The notes: generated by a model from the letters alone, not told the origin. Positions 7,478 to 27,241 are shown, counted from the first letter of the stretch. The stretch: 32,000 nt of DNA from Acaryochloris marina MBIC11017 (GCF_000018105.1 NC_009925.1:4260001-4292000), one strand, 5' to 3'. A program made the numbers and translations.

Positions 7478-7552
<75 letters not shown>

Positions 7553-7664
7553 GGCTGTAAAACTATTCTGGTGAGGCTTGAAGGCTTTTATAACTAGCTT
7601 TCAGGTTTGTTTTATGTGAATCTCCACATCAAATTCATGTCCGTTAAAGCTGGTTAGTTCCTAC

Positions 7665-7690
7665 AAGTGGCCGGAAGAAGTGGCCGGAAG
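7665..7690 (+). repeat. tandem 13-bp repeat aagtggccggaag x2; candidate arm-type recombinase binding sites on the attL side
   Basis: Perfect tandem duplication that ends 9 nt upstream of the integrase start. The same TGGCCGGA(A) core recurs twice with the same 13-bp period at 23408-23429. Confidence 0.6.
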
Positions 7691-7699
7691 GATTAGCCC

Positions 7700-8845
7700 G
7701 TGAGAAGAAATAGTAGAGATAAAGTCCAGGTCACCGATGATCGAGGGATGATTAGACTCAGGTGGACACAACCTGGGGGTCAACGTACAAGTCTAAATCT
7801 TGGATTGGAACATACTAGAGAGAATATTGTTTATGCCAATGGCATTGCTAGACAGATAGAAGGAGATATGAGATGTGGTCAGTACGATATTTCAAAGAAT
7901 AAGTATAGACCCAAAACTATTGGTCATTCCGGCCTAAGCTGTTTTGAACTGTTTGAGAAGTTCACCAGGTACAAACACAACGAGGGTTTAATCTCCGCCC
8001 GGTCTGTAGAAACACGATATGCTCCAATTGCCACGCTTCTAAAGCAATGGCTGAATAAGCCTGCTCATGATGTTTCGCGAAAAGACACTGAGAACCTTAA
8101 AGCTGTAATGCTCGAACGCTGTATTGAGAGGACTGTCAAAGAGCGATTATGGATGATGAAGAGTTGTTGGGAGTGGGCTAAAGAATGCCAACACCTGGTG
8201 GGGGATAATCCTTGGATAGGATTAACAGCTTCAATTAAAGTTCAGCCAAGCCAAAGGCAAAAGCCATTCACTACGGTGGAGATAATAGCAATTCTAGAAG
8301 CATTTAAGCATCACCGCCATTATTCTCATTACGCTGATTTTGTTTATTTTTTATTTGGGGTAGCTACTCGACCGGGTGAAGCTATTGCATTGCAATGGAA
8401 TCATTTTGGCTCAGACTTTCAGACGGCTTGGATTGGAGAATCCATGAGCAAAGGACAGCGAAAGAGCACTAAAACCGGGAAAGCAAGGACTATAGTTTTG
8501 TCGAGTAGCATCCAGGTTATGCTCCAGCGCAGATGCCAAGAGCTACAGCCTGATAAGTATGATTTAGTTTTTCCCAGTCCGAAGGGGCTACCGATTTGTG
8601 AACGCAACTTTCGTGAAAGAGCTTGGAAAACAATTCTTGATCAATGTCACATTGATTATCGAAGGCCATATGTAATGAGACATACAGCTATTTCTCATGC
8701 TTTGGCTAATGGCGCTGATCCTGTCAGCGTTGCTGAGCAATCTGGACACAATAAGCGTGTACTTCTGGATACTTACGCTCATGTAATCAAGCCCCAAAGC
8801 GTATTTGTGGAGTTTTCAGGCACAATAACCAACCCTCGTGCCTAA
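7700..8845 (+). CDS. int: tyrosine recombinase / phage-type integrase
   Basis: Catalytic pattern: ATRPGEAIALQW (Arg box), VMRHTAISHAL (H-x-x-R) and GHNKRVLLDTYAHV (His...Tyr). The N-terminal KVQVTDDRGMIRLRW...LNLGL resembles an arm-binding/SAM-like N-domain. Starts at GTG 7700; the first in-frame ATG is 16 codons downstream. Confidence 0.92.
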   Translation: MRRNSRDKVQVTDDRGMIRLRWTQPGGQRTSLNLGLEHTRENIVYANGIARQIEGDMRCGQYDISKNKYRPKTIGHSGLSCFELFEKFTRYKHNEGLISARSVETRYAPIATLLKQWLNKPAHDVSRKDTENLKAVMLERCIERTVKERLWMMKSCWEWAKECQHLVGDNPWIGLTASIKVQPSQRQKPFTTVEIIAILEAFKHHRHYSHYADFVYFLFGVATRPGEAIALQWNHFGSDFQTAWIGESMSKGQRKSTKTGKARTIVLSSSIQVMLQRRCQELQPDKYDLVFPSPKGLPICERNFRERAWKTILDQCHIDYRRPYVMRHTAISHALANGADPVSVAEQSGHNKRVLLDTYAHVIKPQSVFVEFSGTITNPRA

Positions 8846-8889
8846 TACTGGTCGTTCTAACTTAGACGTGGATTAATTGAGTTGACCTC

Positions 8890-9777
8890 ATGGATAGCAA
8901 TATTACCCAGCAGAAATTTGTACTGAAACTTTTGTATTGGCCTTACAACGGCTTTAATTACCTAGTTCCACATAAATCAGCATTTGATCAGATTGTAAGA
9001 ATCCTTCCTGATGAAGAGTCGAGGGAAAGTTTTATGGTGATACATAACTTATCTCTTGACGAGTTGGGGGAAGCTCTAAAGAAGCCTCTAGAACGCAAGA
9101 AGGCTGATCTTTTTTGCTCACTGGCCAAAATTGTTGAATTCCCTTTTGATGAGTTTTATCTCAGAGAACTTAATCTTCAATATTTTCATTCGGTTATACC
9201 GACTCAGCTGAGAACTGAAAAACAAGTCTATGATTCGATCTCTCATTTGGACCTTGAGAAAGTAGGTTTTCCTCCACCCATAGGACCACCACCAAAGGTC
9301 TTCATCGATATAGATTTATTCCCCTTATATGGAGAGTGCCTGAGATCTAATTATGCTTGCATGATTAAGGCAAATAAAAAGGCAGAGGCCAATCAAGACG
9401 TCAAGAGATTATTCCAAGAAATCTTTGACGTGCAGAAGCGGTTGTCACGCTTATCCAGATCTGAATCTGCCGTTACAGGTGAGTTGTGCCCGAGCATTTG
9501 TAAGAATTGTGGGAAATATCAAGTTTTCGAGCGAGGAAAAGGGCGTGGTATACCTGAGTTTTGCGATGAGTGCAAAGATGATTGCTTGAGAGTGAGAAAC
9601 AATGGGAAGCGCCGGAAATCCAACAATGGTTGGAAAGTGGCTTTTGATGGGAGCCCCAGAACATGTCAATCCTACCGATATCGTGACACTTACTCAGATT
9701 CTTGCCAGGGGGCACGGAGACAAGTGAACAAAGATTTTATATGCAAATCCTGCTTCATCGCATACCAAAATCAGTAG
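8890..9777 (+). CDS. hypothetical protein with C-terminal Cys-rich zinc-ribbon region
   Basis: 295-aa ORF with ATG start. C-terminal CPSICKNCGKYQ...FCDECKDDC plus further Cys pairs (CQSYRYRDTYSDSC, CKSC). No family recognised. Confidence 0.6.
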   Translation: MDSNITQQKFVLKLLYWPYNGFNYLVPHKSAFDQIVRILPDEESRESFMVIHNLSLDELGEALKKPLERKKADLFCSLAKIVEFPFDEFYLRELNLQYFHSVIPTQLRTEKQVYDSISHLDLEKVGFPPPIGPPPKVFIDIDLFPLYGECLRSNYACMIKANKKAEANQDVKRLFQEIFDVQKRLSRLSRSESAVTGELCPSICKNCGKYQVFERGKGRGIPEFCDECKDDCLRVRNNGKRRKSNNGWKVAFDGSPRTCQSYRYRDTYSDSCQGARRQVNKDFICKSCFIAYQNQ

Positions 9778-9976
9778 ACTACGAATTTTGTTATTTCGAT
9801 TGCAGAAAATCTGCAACCATTTGCTGATGGACTCGCTTAAATAGGATTTATAAGTCCTAAGGTCTCACCAGAGCCAAAAGGATTACGGTCAAAAAAATTG
9901 TTATCCGGTAGTGCCAGCTCGCCAAAGTCGCCACTACCGGCATGTCACACAATCCAAATCCATTGGAGGATTTTTC

Positions 9977-18826: not shown

Positions 18827-19207
18827 ATGAAGGTTTTTGACTGGAAAGACTACAACAATTTAGCTGAAAATATATTTGTAGGTTGCAAGAAAGAAGACCC
18901 TTTGTATGAAGCTAAGTTGCGTTGTGTTATTAGTCGAGCATACTACGCTGCATTTTGTTCTACCAAGGATTTTCTGGAAGACCGAAACGGACGATCATTG
19001 GGAACCAGCCACGTATCAGTTATTAATGAAGCGAGGAAACTTGAATGTCCAGAGGGGCACTTTATAAATTGTTATTTAGACAAGCTAAGAAATATAAGGA
19101 GAGCCGTTGATTATGACTTGAATTTTTCCGGTAAAATTGAATCTGAGGCCAGATTCGCCTTGCAGAAGTCGAAAGAAATTATTGGGAAAATCAATAATAT
19201 TCGATGA
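18827..19207 (+). CDS. HEPN domain protein
   Basis: 126 aa, apparently all helical. Helix-1 pattern EAKLRCVISRAYYAAFCSTKDFL and conserved LDKLRNIRRAVDYD (the R...R..a.Y motif of classical PF05168-type HEPN). Note there is no His after the Arg. Confidence 0.65.
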   Translation: MKVFDWKDYNNLAENIFVGCKKEDPLYEAKLRCVISRAYYAAFCSTKDFLEDRNGRSLGTSHVSVINEARKLECPEGHFINCYLDKLRNIRRAVDYDLNFSGKIESEARFALQKSKEIIGKINNIR

Positions 19208-19214
19208 ACCTTAT

Positions 19215-19421
19215 ATGAAGAGGTGCATTTCTAACTACAACGACGACTACATAGCCCCAATCACTGATCGTCTTACCCAAGAACAGAAACTTGAGCTATT
19301 AGACTGGCACCCTCTGTTTACTGGCCGATGCCCTAATTGTGAGATGCTGATGAAAGGGACTTAACCACCAAGAGTTCACTGGGATTGTGATGAATGCGGT
19401 TGGAAGGATGACACTATATAA
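19215..19421 (+). pseudogene. zinc-ribbon ORF interrupted by an in-frame TAA
   Basis: From ATG 19215: MKRCISNYNDDYIAPITDRLTQEQKLELLDWHPLFTGRCPNCEMLMKGT, then TAA at 19362-19364, then in the same frame PPRVHWDCDECGWKDDTI and TAA at 19419-19421. The CPNC and CDEC halves of one zinc ribbon lie on either side of the stop. Confidence 0.5.
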
Positions 19422-19446
19422 ATCCATTAGGTGCAAAAGGTAATTC

Positions 19447-19788
19447 CTATTTGTTGCGGCGCCTTCTTAATCTCTCTTTAGCTTTTTCATAAGCTGGATC
19501 ATGTTCAGCAAAGCTCAATATCTCGACTCTTTTTGGGGCTGGTTTCTCACAGATTCTATAAACTAAACGATACGCATTGGGATCTCCCTCCCACTCAATT
19601 TCTAATGCCCGATAGTTTTGTAACCCACCAGTCAAATTGTGCCAAGGTAGAAAATCACATTTATGAGGATCCTCCTGTAAGACTGGCTTAAAAATCTCTT
19701 CAAAATCAGTTTTCAGATCTTCAGGAAGTATGTGAACATCTTCGCTAGTAACCTTAGGATGAACTTTCAGGTGATACCTTGTAGCCAC
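19447..19788 (-). CDS. RelE/ParE-family toxin-like protein
   Basis: Matches the RelE/ParE pattern: YHLKVHPKVTSEDVHILPEDLKTDFEEIF...LTGGLQNYRALEI...YRLVYRICE...VEILSFAEHDPAYEKA. Starts at GTG 19788, 35 nt inside the upstream ORF. Confidence 0.75.
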   Translation of the reverse strand: MATRYHLKVHPKVTSEDVHILPEDLKTDFEEIFKPVLQEDPHKCDFLPWHNLTGGLQNYRALEIEWEGDPNAYRLVYRICEKPAPKRVEILSFAEHDPAYEKAKERLRRRRNK

Positions 19789-20767
19789 GCGCTTTAATTT
19801 TCTCTCTCACTTCCTGCATATCAAAGCTATAATCTGGCTCTATGATCTCCCATTCAATCTCCTCACCAGATTCTATGGATTCAATTCGCTGTAATGCTTT
19901 GCCCTCAGCAGATTTGGGGCTAATGTAGAGGATGAGATCATCTGTCCTACAAAGAACCCAATCTTTAAGACCTGCTTGATCCTTAAGGCGGTTAGTAGTA
20001 TATAAGATCTCTTCTGCAGATTCTTTTATGTCCCTTACATACTTGAGGAGATTTACTTGATCCAACTTTTTTCTCACAGTTGTATTTTTCAATTCCTCGT
20101 CTTCAATAGCTGCCCTAGCCAAACCCTCAAAAATTGGTAGCACTTCCAACCCATTGCCTATTTCAACAAGTGGTTGGGAGAACTTAGGAAAGATACTTGA
20201 GAACATGACCATTCCATCACGCAAATCCTTTACCTTCCTGACGGGTCTTTTGTTACTTCTAGAGGATTCATAAATCAAGCTCAAACCCAAAAGAGCCTGA
20301 GAAAAGACATCTGATTCAGTACTAAGGCTAAATAAGTAGTCCGAAACATCTTTACTAACAAGGGCGACACAATTTTCATAGAGCTGTTTCAACTCCTTAG
20401 ATGCTTCCTTAAGGTATTTAGACTTTTCTCGAAAAGAGTTTGTCAATACTGAATTTTCAAGTATCTTTCTAATCTTCTCCCACTTAGAAAGATAAATCCT
20501 GTTAATATCTCTACCGAAAACTCTGTCAATATCTTTACCGATTTCAGGATCAGAATAAATACTGGAATACCTACTACGGGAGTTTTTAGCTATTCCGTTT
20601 GTTGAATTTTGTTGATTTACACTACGCTCCAATAATTGACGTTGTGTATCAGTTGCAGCGTCATCGGTGCTAACAGCTGCTGCCATATACTCTGCAGTTT
20701 CTTGTGTGTATGCTACCAGAGAGCTTTTCACTGGAAAAAATCCCTTTACGTACTTCAATTCTCGCAC
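19754..20767 (-). CDS. 337-aa hypothetical protein occupying the antitoxin position upstream of the RelE/ParE-like gene
   Basis: Long ORF with GTG at 20767; the first ATG is 27 codons in. It looks mostly helical, and no family is recognised. Its 3' end overlaps the toxin-like gene. Confidence 0.6.
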   Translation of the reverse strand: MRELKYVKGFFPVKSSLVAYTQETAEYMAAAVSTDDAATDTQRQLLERSVNQQNSTNGIAKNSRSRYSSIYSDPEIGKDIDRVFGRDINRIYLSKWEKIRKILENSVLTNSFREKSKYLKEASKELKQLYENCVALVSKDVSDYLFSLSTESDVFSQALLGLSLIYESSRSNKRPVRKVKDLRDGMVMFSSIFPKFSQPLVEIGNGLEVLPIFEGLARAAIEDEELKNTTVRKKLDQVNLLKYVRDIKESAEEILYTTNRLKDQAGLKDWVLCRTDDLILYISPKSAEGKALQRIESIESGEEIEWEIIEPDYSFDMQEVREKIKARGYKVSPESSS

Positions 20768-20943
20768 AGATACAAAAAGGGTTAACTAGTAAGTAATTTT
20801 GCTCTAATTTCTTAATAAGATATTCAAAATTCGCAAGAGTAAATCATCCAGCTGTGTTTCTCGGTTTTAAGCCGGATTACGCAGTAACCTCAGCTTGTAG
20901 CTCAGCTTCCCACTGATCCAGATATCGGAATCCCGATAGCAGA

Positions 20944-21510
20944 CTAACGACAAGAGTAATCCCCTTTGATGACAGTCGGGTTCGGGGCTGAGTCTCCCAA
21001 GTCTGTTGACTTGCACATACCAGAGACCGCTGACCAAACACCTAAATGGGGAACTCTCATGAACGAGGTGTACCCATGTACCCGCTCATACTTTGGCTTG
21101 GCCCTAAAATAAACAATTAAATCATCGACCTCTGAAGTAATTTCGTAATAGTCCGAATAGGTCCCCCTGGCATCGGGCACGTCAACATTACTCGACATCA
21201 GGTTTTCTAAGTCAGCCACCCGTAAGGCCTCGGCGTGAGCCTTCTCTATCTTCTCTAGGCTGGCATCCTCATCTAAGGTCTCCGCTTGAACGACTCGAAC
21301 CATTCCCACAAGGTGACTCTTGACTGACTTCTCTATACCCTTGCAGCCCTCGTCCTCTATCGTTCGCTCACATAAAGGACCACCAGAACTTAATAAACTC
21401 CCACCTATCCAAAACAACACAAGTAAACCCAAAAAACCAAGGCCTGAATATAAATAAAGTTGCTTGTTCTTCTCAAAGCTGGAACGATTGTCTATTGATG
21501 CCGGTCTCAT
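20944..21510 (-). CDS. membrane-anchored protein with Cys-containing extracytoplasmic domain
   Basis: ATG start. One TM segment, LYLYSGLGFLGLLVLFWIGGSLL, followed by a soluble domain with 4 Cys. Faint resemblance to cyanobacterial pilin-like GspH-type proteins (YYEITSEV...YFRAKP...GYTSFM...MCKS), but no FTLIE prepilin motif. Confidence 0.55.
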   Translation of the reverse strand: MRPASIDNRSSFEKNKQLYLYSGLGFLGLLVLFWIGGSLLSSGGPLCERTIEDEGCKGIEKSVKSHLVGMVRVVQAETLDEDASLEKIEKAHAEALRVADLENLMSSNVDVPDARGTYSDYYEITSEVDDLIVYFRAKPKYERVHGYTSFMRVPHLGVWSAVSGMCKSTDLGDSAPNPTVIKGDYSCR

Positions 21511-21740
21511 TAAAATTTTTCCCTCTTTCTCTCTAGTTTTTATTGATATCAGAGTATATGAATTCGGGCCTAATATCGCTCATGCCTAAGCATATGAAAC
21601 ATTTACGTCTATTTTTTACGGTTTATCCCGAATAAAGCCCTGCCTGTGTAAAGCAACACGACACAAAACAAAGGCCTCACGAGCCACGTCAAGCGGTCTT
21701 GTTACTATCACTCCGCTGACAAATAAAAATAACGTTGTAG

Positions 21741-21971
21741 CGACTGCTATATGTTCCGCTCAAGAAGCCACAACAGGGCGAACTGACTCCCCTAGAGTGA
21801 GAGTATAACCGTGCTCTGAGTCAAGAACGAATGGGCATTGAACACATTAATCGCAGCCTGAAGATTTTCAGAATTTTGTCGGAGCGCTATCGCAGCCGTA
21901 GTCGTCGCTACGCGCTACGGTGTAACTTGATTGCAGCCATCTATAACTACGAGCTATCTTTGGCTGCTTAA
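21741..21971 (+). pseudogene. C-terminal fragment of an IS4/IS5-superfamily (DDE_Tnp_4-like) transposase, frame-disrupted
   Basis: ...PLKKPQQGELTPLE ends at a stop. A frameshift then gives EYNRALSQERMGIEHINRSLKIFRILSERYRSRSRRYALRCNLIAAIYNYELSLAA and a stop at 21969-21971. This is the typical C-terminal tail of cyanobacterial DDE transposases. No N-terminal part is present. Confidence 0.65.
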
Positions 21972-22485
21972 GAGATGGCAAACAGCAATACCACATCGTC
22001 AAATGAATATTGCAAGAGGTCTAATGTAGAATGTGGATTCACCAGACACCAGCTCAACTGGCAGAATGATATCCATGCAGTAGTCTACCGCTTCTAGAAC
22101 ATTCTTCACAGTGGCCTAATGCCCTGCTGTATACACCACTTAGCATCTGCAATCTGCTGTTGTGTCCAGCCTTCTTCTTTCCAAAGCTTGTTGTATTATC
22201 CCCAAATGCCAAGAATAGGGGCTACAGCGTGATACTCGTCATTCTCGCTTTCCTCGTCGGTTAAGCCTGAAATCTACTCGTCGGTTCTGCTAGTTTTGCT
22301 GCTTCAGAATTCCCCATGATCCTTACACTCAGAGGCTTTCACTCCATGTTCACACTGAATTGGCAAGGTGTGACTAGAGGTCGGTTATCACATCCTTAGA
22401 AGTGATAACCTCTCACCCTGGGGAGCCATGTACTTTCCGGGGTTCTTAGATAGAGGCGCGTTCCTACCTTTTCAGAAAAGGTTAT

Positions 22486-22524
22486 CCCCCAGTAGTCATT
22501 CAACCTGCTACTGGGGGTTTATTT
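22486..22524 (+). terminator. intrinsic-terminator-like hairpin (10-bp GC-rich stem plus TTTATTT)
   Basis: cccccagtag (22486-22495), 12-nt loop, ctactggggg (22508-22517), then tttattt. It lies 25 nt beyond the stop of the minus-strand ORF at 22550, but the T-run is on the + strand. Confidence 0.5.
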
Positions 22525-22549
22525 GGCACCACCGAGCCATTGGGATGTC

Positions 22550-22828
22550 TTAGAACTCGTCTTCGTAATCGTTCTCAGCGCGTACCGTCTGATCAGCCTG
22601 CACTGTGTACCAGCAATCCAGAACACCATCAAGACCAAACTCATTGAGAACCCAATTCTCAACCCTTGTCTGTGTTGTGTGCTCTTCAGCAGTAGATTTA
22701 CGGGTAACGAGGATGATCCAGTACTCATCAAGCTCTAGCTCTTCAGAGAAAGGACCACCACTCTTCAGCCGAATGTAAGCCAAGGTATAAGGCGGGCAAA
22801 GTGGCTCTACAGTATGTTGCCAGTCCAT
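22550..22828 (-). CDS. hypothetical acidic protein (possibly the 3' part of a frameshifted gene)
   Basis: ATG at 22828 gives MDWQHTVEPLCPPYTLAYIRLKSGGPF...ENDYEDEF. The frame stays open up to 22843 and overlaps ORF 22743-22928 by about 100 nt. Confidence 0.45.
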   Translation of the reverse strand: MDWQHTVEPLCPPYTLAYIRLKSGGPFSEELELDEYWIILVTRKSTAEEHTTQTRVENWVLNEFGLDGVLDCWYTVQADQTVRAENDYEDEF

Positions 22829-22928
22829 CAGCTTCGGATGCAATTAAACGGATGTCTGGCTGTGTGGCCTGGGCGTTAGTGAGCTGAGTATCGTTGCATG
22901 AAATTTGAACGATATCGATTTGAGACAT
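22743..22928 (-). CDS. hypothetical 61-aa ORF, first gene leftward of the divergent switch (possibly the 5' part of a frameshifted gene)
   Basis: ATG at 22928 is preceded by AGGTGA at appropriate spacing. Product begins MSQIDIVQISCNDTQLTNAQATQPDIRLIASEADG... The downstream ORF is in the +1 frame. Confidence 0.45.
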   Translation of the reverse strand: MSQIDIVQISCNDTQLTNAQATQPDIRLIASEADGLATYCRATLPALYLGLHSAEEWWSFL

Positions 22929-23014
22929 AATAGTTTCACCTCTTACGGGGTAGAGAGCGGTTCTTCTTTGCGGGAGTGGCCGCTCTCTTTTGATTTGTCC
23001 ATGCCTACATTATT

Positions 23015-23114
23015 CCCAGTCACAGGGGGTCATCAACTCTGCTGATTAATAATTACCCCAGTTACAGGGGTAACCTATAAGCTGCATATATCCCCAGTTA
23101 CAAGGGATATATGC
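23015..23114. promoter_or_regulatory. three related palindromic operator-like sites in the divergent intergenic region
   Basis: Site 1: cccagtcacaggg (23015-23027). Site 2: ttacccc-agttaca-ggggtaa (23053-23073). Site 3: gcatatatccc-cagttacaa-gggatatatgc (23084-23114, perfect 11-bp arms). Shared core is CCC(C)AGT(T/C)ACA(A)GGG. Confidence 0.65.
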
Positions 23115-23147
23115 AACAATGGATTCAATGGATTGGGTGATATCGAG

Positions 23148-23378
23148 ATGTCTAGAGGAACCCCTAAAGAGCTGCTGCCCAAAGAATTTATAGCTCAGCA
23201 AATCAAACCTGTAGGGGAGATGCCTGATGAGCCATTAGGTGCGAAACCGCTAGCTGTCCGAGTAGGCAAGAGTGTTTATGATGCCGTGACAGCTTTACCT
23301 AGGGCTGAGCGAATCACTTGGTTACGAAAAACGATTGCCGATGCGGCTCAGCGTGAGTTGATGGGAGGTGAGAAATAA
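23148..23378 (+). CDS. small putative DNA-binding regulator (or recombination directionality factor) next to attR
   Basis: ATG at 23148 (track ORF from TTG 23133). 76 aa. KPLAVRVGKSVYDAVTALPRAERITWLRKTIADAAQREL resembles small regulator proteins of cyanobacterial plasmids and islands. Immediately downstream of the operators. Confidence 0.55.
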   Translation: MSRGTPKELLPKEFIAQQIKPVGEMPDEPLGAKPLAVRVGKSVYDAVTALPRAERITWLRKTIADAAQRELMGGEK

Positions 23379-23407
23379 GAACGAACTTCCGTTGTTTCAG
23401 ATACCTT

Positions 23408-23429
23408 TGGCCGGATAGATTGGCCGGAA
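23408..23429 (+). repeat. two TGGCCGGA(A) copies with a 13-bp period; candidate arm-type sites on the attR side
   Basis: tggccggatagattggccggaa. Same core, orientation and period as 7665-7690. Ends 57 nt before the attR core. Confidence 0.55.
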
Positions 23430-23486
23430 AGGTTTTTCAAAAAGCTTACAAGACCTATCAAATATAGATTTCAGCCATAGGTGAAT

Positions 23487-23535
23487 CTTCGTTTACACCG
23501 AAGATGTCGGCGGTTCGAGCCCGTCATCGCCCATT
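23487..23535 (+). repeat. attR core: duplicated 3' part of tRNA-Val
   Basis: Exact 49-bp copy of 7504-7552. It lacks the 5' half of the tRNA, so it is not a functional tRNA. Confidence 0.9.
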
Positions 23536-24457
23536 TAATGTAAGGCTTAAACCTTCTAAGAGTTCTATTTAGTTTCTAGCGGGGCTGTTGAGCATAAATC
23601 TCATTGAAGTTGTCTTCGCTGGGGATTAAACAATGTTGTGGCTAGCGTACCAGTGACCCCCAAGAGCTAGAAATAGCACCTCAGGTTGTCTGAAATATCA
23701 ATGTTGGTGATTGTTTGTGTGCAGACAAAGCATACATATTAGGGAAAATGCCAACAAAATTGCCCTGATGTTTGTGGTTCCTCTTGGTTCAGAACAAGCA
23801 CTGAACTCAAATATCCTAGAGACGATAGTTTTTCTGCATTTTAAGTAAAAAACCTCATAAATCAACATCATCAAAATTCAGAGAGTTTGATCGAACAGAA
23901 AAATTCAAACCTGTGAGCAATATTTTAACGACCTAACTTGGTGTTGCAGGCGTTAACTATCATGATTGGAATTTTGAAATATTGAGGGATGTAAATTTTC
24001 GATGCTTAGAATAAAAATTTGATATATCGGATCTTATTTAAGTTGGCTGATATAAAAGATGTAATTAAACTTTTAGACTTCATATTTATATTTTGTTGCC
24101 TAGCGCTTAATTCTGAATAGATGGAAATATCTCTAAAGAAATAATTGGGGATAAAAGGAACTGTAAAACAAATGCTTTTATTATGGAATAATTTATGCCA
24201 TGAAGTTATACAAAAAAAGCTATAAGTTATACCAATCAGTGTTGTTCTTGAACATTATCTCAGACAGGGTGTTGCCATACTGATTCACAGAAGAAAGTTT
24301 AGCTACTTTTGATTGTGAGATTGGTGGCTGAAAGCTATATGCTCTAAAGTCATCAGCATATATGACCATGGATTGATTAAGCTATATAAGAAAAGAGGTC
24401 TAGATGTGTTTGTAGGTAATTGATTTCTAAAGAAATAATTAATTGTCTCGAATCTCT

Positions 24458-25498: not shown

Positions 25499-27241
25499 AT
25501 GCGTCAATCATTTCAGCTTAATTTTGAGCATGAGTTGGAATCTCCAATTGAAAGCTTGAATGACCTGAAAGTTGGTTCAACCTCACAAGCATCTGTCGAT
25601 ATCAAAAGTGACAATATTGATATTGCCCCGCAGCAAATCCTAGAACTTTCTGAGTTAGGTACTAAAGTCAATCTTCCTGATATTCAGACTTTTATCTCGA
25701 TACCACTTTTTTCGTCTGAGCCATCTACACAAGACACTACATTAGAAGAAAATGTGGGAACTCAAGCCCCAAAGACGCTAGAAAGTGGTTATTGCTGTTT
25801 ATGTACTGCTTGCGGAACTGCACATAGCCATGGTGCAAGGTTTCAGACAGGTGGATCGTTCGCTCAATTTAATGACAGTGGCGGACGATTCAAATGGAAC
25901 CAGCCTGGAGGAAGCGGGAACGCAGTCAATATTACATACAGCTTTGCACCTAGTTTTCAATTAAATGGGTTATCGAATAACGAAGCAAGATCGCTCTTCC
26001 GCGAGGCTCTGGGCGTTTGGGCAAAGTATGCTCCATTAAATTTTCAAGAAGTTCAAGATCCTGGCAATGGAAGCGACGTTGATATCCGGGTCGGAGCTGA
26101 GTTTATTGATGGTCGTAGTGGTACCTTGGCCTTCGCATTTTTCCCGCGAGGCGGTGATCAAACCTACGATACTGGCGAAACTTGGAATGCTGGCTTATTT
26201 CTAGAAACCGCTGTTCATGAAACGGGCCATAGTCTTGGTCTTGGGCATGAATCGGGAGTGGATGCGATTATGAATCCCTCAATTCAGCGGCGGTTTAGTG
26301 GGGCGGGCACTGCGTTCTTGCTACAGGATGATATCAATGGTGTTCACAGCCTCTATGGCAGTGGTACAGGATCTGTTAGTCCCCTATCACCTTCTCCGAC
26401 TCCAGTCCCGGCTCCGGCCCCAGCTCCAGCTCCAGCTCCAGCTCCGGCTCCAGCCCCAGCCCCAGTGCCAACACCCACCCCGACTCCGACTCCAACACCA
26501 ACACCGACTCCAACACCGACTCCATCACCAAGCCCAACACCAACTCCATCACCGAGTCCTACGCCTGGTGACAACCGGATTGATGGCACCAATCGGAATG
26601 ATGTCTTACGGGGTGGCTCCCGTAATGATGTGATTCGGGGATTTGGTGGTAATGATTTGATCAGTGGTCGAAGGGGAAATGATCGCCTCTTTGGGGGAAG
26701 TGGCAACGATCGTATGTTTGGTGGCTCAGGTAACGATGTGATGTCTGGCGATGGTGGTAGCGATCGTATGAGTGGTGGCTCGGGTAATGACCGTATGTTT
26801 GGCGGCTCAGGCAATGACCGTATCGACGGCAACTCGGGCAACGATGTATTGAATGGTGGCTCAGGCAATGACTCTCTGTTTGGGGGAAATGGTCGCGATC
26901 GATTAATTGGTGTCAATATCAGTGATGCTAAACCCGGTGTCGGAGAGATTGATTTCCTGCGAGGGGGAAGAGATGCAGATGTCTTTGTCTTGGGAGATAG
27001 CCAAAAGGTTTATTATGCTGACGGTCCAGCAACCAGTAATTATGCTGTGGTGCAGGACTTCACACCCAATCAGGGAGATGTATTGCAACTGAATGGCTCA
27101 GCCAGCGATTACTCATTAGGGGTTTCACAGCCCAGTGGAACCGCCCTGATTTATGAAGGGGGGAGTTCTCGTGAAGTCATCGCGATTATCCAAGGTGCGA
27201 CTAACTTCAGTCTGAACAGTAGTGCGGTCCGGTACGTGTAG
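25499..27241 (+). CDS. secreted zinc metalloprotease (matrixin/M10-like) with Pro-Ala/Pro-Thr linker and RTX calcium-binding repeats
   Basis: AGGAGG lies 6 nt upstream of the [15 protein letters not shown] zinc site followed by IMNPS (Met-turn). (PA)n(PT)n linker. About 9 GGSGND-type nonapeptide repeats. No N-terminal signal peptide, which is consistent with type I secretion. Confidence 0.88.
26389..26566 (+). repeat. coding hexanucleotide microsatellite (CCNGCN / CCNACN) encoding the PAPAPA...PTPTPT linker
   Basis: Runs such as ccggctccggccccagctccagctccagctccggct, then ccgactccgactccaacaccaacaccgact. They produce spurious ORFs in other frames. Confidence 0.85.

Follow-up and report, generated by a model that had tools for sequence, protein, structure and literature searches.

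Gene organisation and the toxin

The window analysed here is a stretch of 32,000 nucleotides (nt) from Acaryochloris marina MBIC11017 (NC_009925.1:4260001-4292000), and all positions are counted from its first nucleotide. Between positions 19447 and 20767, two overlapping genes on the minus strand encode a small toxin-like protein of 113 amino acids (aa) and, upstream of it, a partner of up to 337 aa in the antitoxin position. The pair is probably a type II toxin-antitoxin system, in which a toxin with a RelE/YoeB/YafQ fold would be neutralised by the tail of the large protein and a helical domain in front of this tail would serve as a toxin-independent accessory module. The RelE-type toxin-antitoxin core is known; the new element is a rare accessory domain, not described before, which is shuffled among toxin-antitoxin types. 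The features of the pair are listed below (ORF, open reading frame; pLDDT, predicted local distance difference test).

19447..19788, minus strand: toxin gene, 113 aa, GTG start; RelE/YoeB/YafQ-fold protein, predicted mRNA interferase
19754..20767, minus strand: antitoxin gene; longest ORF 337 aa with a GTG start; alternative starts at GTG 20731 (325 aa) and ATG 20686 (310 aa)
19754..19788, minus strand: overlap of antitoxin stop and toxin start, 35 nt
19757..19933, minus strand: predicted C-terminal toxin-neutralising module, residues ~279-337, SAEGKALQRI...EWEIIEPD...REKIKARGYKVS
19973..20512, minus strand: N-terminal accessory domain, residues ~86-265, six long helices, pLDDT 75-94
20513..20767, minus strand: N-terminal leader, residues 1-85, poorly conserved and of low model confidence
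20768..20943, minus strand: upstream intergenic region, presumed site of the promoter

An earlier note, made from the sequence alone, had described the two overlapping ORFs and placed the GTG start of the toxin 35 nt inside the upstream ORF, and the coordinates agree. This start is fixed because 33 aligned homologues begin at the same position (V/M-A-T-K/R-Y..., with Y5 almost invariant). Antitoxin and toxin genes overlap by 23-47 nt in related loci, similar to the overlap in the window, and this conserved arrangement would allow translational coupling. For the large ORF, three starts come into question, at 20767, 20731 and 20686. The NCBI annotation gives a protein of 310 aa from ATG 20686, which corresponds to M28 of the 337-aa ORF (P0061); GTG 20731, which has AAAGGGA 9 nt upstream and agrees with the N-termini of homologues, is slightly preferred. 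The leader contains an insertion of ~28 aa relative to homologues, and, with a later start, some of it might not be translated.

Identical proteins are recorded from the 6.5 Mb Acaryochloris marina chromosome, where both are annotated as hypothetical (UniRef names the toxin 'cytotoxic translational repressor...'), and a literature search gave no account of this pair in Acaryochloris. Judged by their relatives, neither ORF is a product of chance: 60 homologues of the toxin were found, nearly all of them from cyanobacteria, and purifying selection acts on homologues of the large protein (dN/dS 0.24). A fusion or frameshift artefact in the 337-aa ORF was rejected on the grounds of the same purifying selection and of the recurrence of the architecture in at least six independent clusters. 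In the intergenic region upstream of the pair (20768-20943), a promoter and operator search gave no convincing sigma-70 match and nothing above shuffled expectation; only short imperfect palindromes were observed there, with no operator-like inverted repeat. An Rfam scan of the window returned a transfer RNA (tRNA) as its sole match.

The 113-aa protein has no match in Pfam, and a sequence search of the PDB with the toxin alone was also negative. Neither the toxin nor the 337-aa protein gave anything significant in PHROGs, and Pfam and NCBIfam were likewise without a significant match for the 337-aa protein. The family as a whole is more informative. Among 34 aligned toxin homologues, 13 match PF15781 ParE-like_toxin (best E 4.4e-6) and four match PF05016 ParE_toxin, and the homologue P0031 matches RelE_StbE (TIGR02385) at E 6.5e-6 with 26.5 bits and YafQ at E 0.003. 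When the family profile was compared with the PDB, the five best matches were all RelE, with E. coli RelE at the top, at marginal E values of 0.15-0.28. In the RelE alignment (E 0.15) the YRLVY segment is in register, with R74 on R61, Y100 on Y87 and H96 on R83. An AlphaFold2 (AF2) model of the toxin, built with the homologue alignment, has a pLDDT of 91.7 and the RelE/ParE alpha-beta arrangement of N-terminal helices followed by an antiparallel sheet. The top 27 Foldseek matches of this model in the PDB all belong to the RelE/YoeB/YafQ/HigB/ParE superfamily (best E 6.8e-4, probability up to 1.0), with target-normalised template-modelling (TM) scores of 0.60-0.79 for the top matches. By its modelled fold, the 113-aa protein is a member of the RelE/ParE superfamily and belongs to a divergent cyanobacterial subfamily, which upholds the assignment in the earlier note by fold and family context and not by curated profile thresholds.

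Six residues are invariant in the 34 toxin sequences: H50, R74, Y77, H96, Y100 and R106. The active sites of the RNase branch comprise R61, R81 and Y87 in RelE and R65, H83 and Y84 in YoeB, and we take the invariant His/Arg/Tyr set of the window family to be typical of this branch (RelE, YoeB, YafQ) and absent from ParE. The protein is most likely a ribosome-dependent mRNA endonuclease.

The antitoxin tail and the helical domain

Word-indexed protein searches with the 337-aa protein recover only three or four proteins, and an exhaustive HMMER search was needed to find the family. P0062 (287 aa) shares 71% identity with the 337-aa protein, limited to the last 58 residues, and P0063 (297 aa) shares 31% identity over residues 115-337. 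The earlier note had recognised no antitoxin motif in the large protein; this claim does not stand. A hidden Markov model (HMM) of the tail, derived from 55 small antitoxins of ordinary length (65-114 aa) that go with this toxin family, matches residues 282-332 of the 337-aa protein (E 2.7e-11). The ORF directly upstream of toxin homologues almost always carries the C-terminal motif SAE[GAES]KA[IL].R[IL] ... W[IV]T[IV] ... EID ... RGYK. From this similarity, the last ~55 residues of the 337-aa protein are predicted to be the neutralising module of the toxin family, common to about 120 small antitoxins, and neutralisation would proceed via the C-terminus. The tail is acidic, with a net charge of -6 across residues 266-337 (relatives: -4 to -10), and its AF2 confidence is low; acidic charge and low model confidence are usual for tails that fold on their toxin. 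A comparison of the tail profile with the PDB gave chance matches only and no sequence relative among solved antitoxins.

Profile scans for the toxin family yielded 59 loci from genomes and 80 more from metagenomes, and the upstream ORFs of 138 toxin-family loci were classified as follows.

DUF2281-type: 39/138 loci; PF10047 E 4.8e-9, VapB NF050009 E 8.6e-7
Ribbon-helix-helix (RHH)-like: 39/138 loci; WLREAIAEKL segment, assigned by eye only
AbrB-like: 18/138 loci; KVEVIIILE segment, assigned by eye only
'Minimal': 23/138 loci; 65-90 aa, no recognisable N-terminal domain
Other ORFs with the motif: 2/138 loci
ORFs of at least 200 aa: 5/138 loci
Motif missing or disrupted: 7/138 loci
ORF cut by contig ends: 5/138 loci

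A motif-bearing ORF lies upstream of the toxin in 126 of the 138 loci and usually overlaps the toxin start. The type II arrangement of adjacent, co-oriented genes with the antitoxin first is thus conserved across genomes. About 120 loci have a small antitoxin, usually of 65-114 aa, and the window partner is about three to four times this size; the earlier note had put it at about four times a normal RelE/ParE antitoxin. The closest relatives of the window toxin that have small antitoxins (63-70% identical) are paired with minimal antitoxins of 77-80 aa. The large antitoxins look like N-terminal additions to such a minimal antitoxin, because the hairpin motif of the minimal class is kept (..ILYISPKSAEGKAL.. 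compared with ..EVIYLSPNSAEGKAL..).

Several loci of the survey deviate from these classes. The upstream ORF of L121 (361 aa) has a long helical N-terminal part, possibly preceded by two membrane-spanning segments, and that of L143 (209 aa) has an unrelated N-terminal domain of ~150 aa. Both were tried as relatives of the helical domain described below and taken as unrelated (hhalign E 0.011 at 4% probability for L121; E 0.52 for L143). The 119-aa upstream ORF of L110 carries a related motif (DKAEGKAL) near its N-terminus, ends in a different C-terminal extension and likewise shows no detectable relation to the helical domain. In L144, a 332-aa ORF that is TnpB-like by eye lies upstream of the toxin homologue. 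L157 retains only a toxin fragment (residues 61-107) beside a 494-aa ORF that is transposase-like by eye, and appears to have been disrupted by a mobile element.

The N-terminal part of the large protein is much rarer than the tail. An exhaustive HMMER search of 1.84 billion representative proteins with the N-terminal profile found only eight clusters, all of them from cyanobacteria or from metagenomes without an assignment. Four of them (P0064, P0065, P0066 and P0068) carry the SAEGKA...RGYK tail, and an overlapping toxin homologue lies downstream of P0064, P0065 and P0068, as it does downstream of P0063 and P0062 from an earlier search. The N-terminal part of P0062 gave a low-confidence profile-profile match to the domain (hhalign), which suggests that it is a very divergent member. 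P0067, P0069 and P0070 have other tails and are followed by other partner genes, which start 0-6 nt from the antitoxin stop codon and are clearly outside the toxin family of the window.

P0067 (HMMER E 1e-21): 162-aa partner gene, PIN-like (PIN_12 E 0.058, VapC E 0.024)
P0069 (plasmid of Thalassoporum mexicanum PCC 7367; HMMER E 4e-8): 96-aa partner gene, RelE-like (hhalign against the toxin profile E 0.0015)
P0070 (HMMER E 2e-6; tail matches DUF5678 at E 0.0012): 131-aa partner gene with a DTGA motif, retropepsin-like

The P0070 partner matches gag-asp_proteas at E 5e-5, below the gathering score, and Asp_protease_2 at E 1.7e-4; the literature contained nothing on DUF5678 partners. The earlier note had asked whether homologues of the large protein are always followed by a RelE/ParE gene. 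Relatives with the same tail are followed by a gene of the window's RelE family or, for P0066, by a remnant of one, and P0067, P0069 and P0070 are not. Since the homologues that lack this RelE family still each precede a small partner gene, the finding is reframed and not overturned.

Two of these loci have further features. In L067 (747-946), the copy is decayed; its toxin lacks residues 44-88, and its antitoxin, P0066, has lost its N-terminal end and runs on into a new extension at the C-terminus. P0069 and its partner lie within a cluster of toxin-antitoxin-like pairs on the T. mexicanum plasmid (L062 3381-7002), which includes a HigB-like toxin paired with an HTH_3 protein and a weak match to YafQ_toxin; a DDE transposase lies nearby.

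In the AF2 model of the 337-aa protein, six long helices span residues 86-265 (pLDDT 75-94), flanked by low-confidence residues 1-85 and 266-337. A fold search with this model gave a best E of 0.28 in the PDB and of 0.056 in BFVD, the latter with a TM-score of about 0.1. Matches to PhoU-like proteins, translin and designed helical bundles were rejected as generic helix matches, and matches to IcmQ, portal and formyl-CoA-transferase proteins in direct profile searches were rejected as noise. A Pfam search of the members of the domain family returned no family for any of them. Three columns are invariant (G185, I247 and L255), and these residues look structural rather than catalytic. The net charge of the domain ranges from -8 to +4 across members. 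Pattern scans for the domain in JGI metagenomes and IMG/VR found nothing, and a pattern scan of IMG/VR for the toxin family was likewise empty. The nine-sequence alignment of the domain was too divergent for pattern design.

Substitution rates were estimated from one genome pair, two marine metagenome-assembled genomes (L070 10001-11180 and L072 5325-6504), in which a large-antitoxin pair occupies the same site, flanked by ruvA-glnB and rnc.

Flanking genes (ruvA, glnB, rnc): dS 0.64-0.71, dN 0.016-0.054, dN/dS 0.02-0.08
N-terminal domain: dS 0.78, dN 0.18, dN/dS 0.24
Tail: dS 0.10, dN 0.016, dN/dS 0.17
Toxin: dS 0.17, dN 0.014, dN/dS 0.08

These rates indicate that the N-terminal domain is a genuine protein, maintained by purifying selection, whose sequence evolves 3-11 times faster than the proteins encoded by the flanking genes. 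In this single pair, the tail and toxin appear to have been recently replaced or homogenised by gene conversion with a breakpoint at the domain junction, because dS falls from 0.78 to 0.10-0.17 exactly there, against a background of 0.64-0.71.

Proposed mode of action and alternative explanations

In the proposed mechanism, the last ~55-60 residues of the upstream protein, which are acidic, would neutralise the toxin; they are the same linear module that ends the ordinary small antitoxins of the cyanobacterial family. The six-helix domain of ~180 residues would take no part in neutralisation. It is fused in front of a 'minimal' antitoxin and occupies the slot that DUF2281, RHH-like or AbrB-like segments fill in sibling antitoxins. 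The presence of the helical domain on different tails with different partner genes argues for a toxin-independent role, and the likeliest roles would be oligomerisation and control of antitoxin availability, through stability, regulation or signal sensing.

The pair resembles RelBE, YefM-YoeB and DinJ-YafQ in its antitoxin-first bicistron with overlapping genes, in its small basic toxin with a RelE/YoeB fold and conserved Arg, His and Tyr residues that may be equivalent, and in the predicted use of an acidic, probably disordered antitoxin C-terminus as the neutraliser, with N-terminal domains swapped between lineages. Compared with these modules, the window toxin subfamily lies below curated thresholds and is almost confined to cyanobacteria, the tail (SAEGKA...W.T....EID.....RGYK) is without a sequence relative among solved antitoxins, and the N-terminal domain is a helical bundle instead of an RHH, Phd/YefM or helix-turn-helix (HTH) domain. 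Its sibling small antitoxins (DUF2281/VapB-like, RHH-like, AbrB-like and 'minimal') share the C-terminal module, the overlap arrangement and the toxin family; relative to them (65-114 aa), the window antitoxin adds ~270 residues before a 'minimal'-type tail.

A globular antitoxin domain paired with unrelated toxins is also found in PanA/Panacea (DUF4065; PMC8832971, PMC10440598). In multidomain Panacea antitoxins, a short separate element neutralises and the globular domain is accessory, with a sensor role proposed by the authors (PMC10440598). Panacea has dozens of toxin partners across phyla and can also neutralise directly (PMC8832971, PMC10440598), whereas the helical domain is tiny in scale, with eight clusters and about four partner types, and direct neutralisation is not assigned to it. 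No DUF4065 Pfam match was detected in the window protein, P0062, P0063, P0065, P0067, P0069 or P0070, nor any structural relation. Panacea may be regarded as the closest functional analogue of the helical domain, which is neither a homologue nor a member of it. CapRel is reportedly a single fused polypeptide with a toxSAS toxin. CapRel-SJ46 offers a precedent for an antitoxin element that is reported to sense a phage protein (PMC9712102); it has no homology to the window pair, at whose locus no defence evidence was found.

Several observations weigh against the reading of the pair as a RelE-type system with a portable accessory domain. The window toxin itself reaches none of the PF05016, PF15781 and TIGR02385 cut-offs; its best NCBIfam match is TIGR02385 RelE_StbE, sub-threshold at E 0.011 and 16.2 bits versus a cut-off of 27.9. 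Its link to these profiles is indirect, through the homologues that match PF15781 and, in P0031, TIGR02385. The partner identities in the P0067, P0069 and P0070 loci are weak, and PDB sequence searches with these three genes returned nothing. The AF2 model of the N-terminal domain rests on an alignment of nine sequences, and the window copy, the most divergent member of its family, is without several consensus motifs (FSDWL, ANLN..N.WF, SILWDL). Any role of the helical domain is, moreover, wholly inferred.

One specific version of this role, in which the helical domain is a portable 'Panacea-like' sensor or regulatory module on at least four toxin-specific tails (those of two RelE-like families, a PIN-like toxin and a retropepsin-like protein) and gates toxin release on phage infection or stress, is only tentatively entertained. 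The related proposal of phage-sensing abortive infection, the idea put forward in the earlier note, holds that the domain recognises a phage product and releases or destabilises the tail, so that the freed RNase stops translation. The location of the pair in an integrated island of phage origin, among cargo of low GC content (see below), is consistent with it, as are the dN of 0.18 in the domain against 0.016-0.054 in flanking genes, the sibling 'minimal' antitoxins, which show that a DNA-binding domain is dispensable in the clade, and the pairing with several toxin types, as in Panacea, a sensor in its authors' proposal (PMC10440598). However, neither protein has a PADLOC-DB v2 match at E <= 1, PADLOC on the cargo neighbours gave only a 14-bit HEPN_IX hint, and neither the toxin family nor the domain was found in IMG/VR. 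The enrichment in defence islands that the note had envisaged was not observed either: relatives were seen between ruvA-glnB and rnc, beside other core genes, or within a toxin-antitoxin cluster on a plasmid, with no recognisable defence island. With dN/dS at 0.24, dS at background and no sign of positive selection in a very rare family, phage sensing is unlikely.

A DNA-binding domain that autoregulates the operon is common among type II antitoxins and is not obligatory. The helical domain could be a new DNA-binding and dimerisation domain with this function, equivalent to the DUF2281, RHH-like and AbrB-like domains, in whose exact slot it lies; that type II antitoxins exchange the N-terminal regulatory domains in front of their neutralising tails is well established (PMC10440598). 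Profile searches detected no HTH, RHH or other DNA-binding family in it, the structural search ended at generic helical bundles (best PDB E 0.28), the charge is neutral to acidic instead of basic, the upstream region is without an operator-like repeat, and the antitoxins of the nearest toxin relatives, at 77-80 aa, show no recognisable DNA-binding domain, which leaves autoregulation through DNA binding doubtful. A different mode of toxicity, that of a ParE-type gyrase poison, would fit the names of the Pfam families matched by 13 (ParE-like_toxin) and four (ParE_toxin) of the homologues, and the annotation 'YoeB/ParE toxin' of the best Foldseek match. It is very unlikely, given that most top structural matches are RNases (RelE, YoeB, YafQ, HigB), that the NCBIfam matches are RelE_StbE and YafQ, and that H50, R74, H96 and Y100 are invariant, with R74 and Y100 aligned with R61 and Y87 of RelE. 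It is more improbable still that the pair is a decaying, non-functional remnant. Decayed copies do occur elsewhere (the L067 toxin and the transposase-type ORFs at toxin fragments in L144 and L157), and the window domain is the most divergent of its family, but both ORFs are intact, with all invariant toxin residues present and the tail motif undamaged.

The accessory-domain reading bears on the triggers of type II toxin-antitoxin systems, which are an open question; accessory domains that neither neutralise nor bind DNA are the best candidates for trigger sensors. Panacea is the one well-studied accessory antitoxin domain, and the window locus would provide a second, unrelated and much smaller example. 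Two unannotated families are defined, the SAEGKA...RGYK neutralising tail and the helical domain. The clean domain boundaries, together with natural controls that have the same tail without the helical domain or the same helical domain on other tails, make domain-deletion and domain-swap experiments straightforward. The rarity of the family and its non-model hosts limit the interest, and the functions given here are predictions.

The host island and neighbouring genes

The toxin-antitoxin pair is cargo of a phage-derived island of ~16 kb, because it sits between tRNA-Val repeats together with integrase, resolvase, TerS-like and TerL genes; the placement in a mobile element made by the earlier note is thereby confirmed.

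7504..23543: host element, an island of ~16 kb inserted into tRNA-Val at its 3' end
7478-7550: tRNA-Val
7504-7560 and 23487-23543: direct repeats bounding the island, 57 nt, 95% identical, first 49 nt identical
7700-8845: tyrosine integrase gene
14258-14914: RuvC-like resolvase gene
15325-15762: TerS-like gene
16321-17751: TerL gene

The scanned ORFs of the island include no recognisable capsid or tail gene, and the element (7478-23543) may be a phage satellite or the remains of a strongly reduced prophage. The GC content is 0.39-0.41 across 18-21 kb compared with 0.45-0.52 elsewhere, and the pair lies inside this low-GC stretch. A 1019-aa ORF of the island (11140-14199) has no Pfam, PHROG or PADLOC match.

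Two ORFs on the plus strand at 18335-19207, of 162 aa and, directly after it, 126 aa, may form a second two-gene cassette adjoining the toxin-antitoxin pair. The 126-aa ORF has weak HEPN matches (Pfam E 0.0035; PADLOC HEPN_IX E 0.0078), and the 162-aa ORF upstream of it has no recognisable nucleotidyltransferase domain. On the other side, a 188-aa ORF without a family match (20944-21510, minus strand) lies on the same strand as the antitoxin gene and 176 nt upstream of it, and contains a hydrophobic, probably membrane-spanning segment (LYLYSGLGFLGLLVLFWIGGSLL). The ~2 kb from the cargo genes to the right attachment site, attR (21511-23486), are without an ORF of at least 100 aa. A short ORF in this interval (21831-21971, ...RILSERYRSRSRRYALRCNLIAAIYNYEL) resembles what we take to be the C-terminal end of a DDE transposase and would suggest insertion-sequence debris. 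Immediately outside the island, the plus strand at 25499-27241 encodes a protein of 580 aa that combines a matrixin-type metalloprotease domain (Peptidase_M10) with RTX calcium-binding repeats and is probably a secreted protease.

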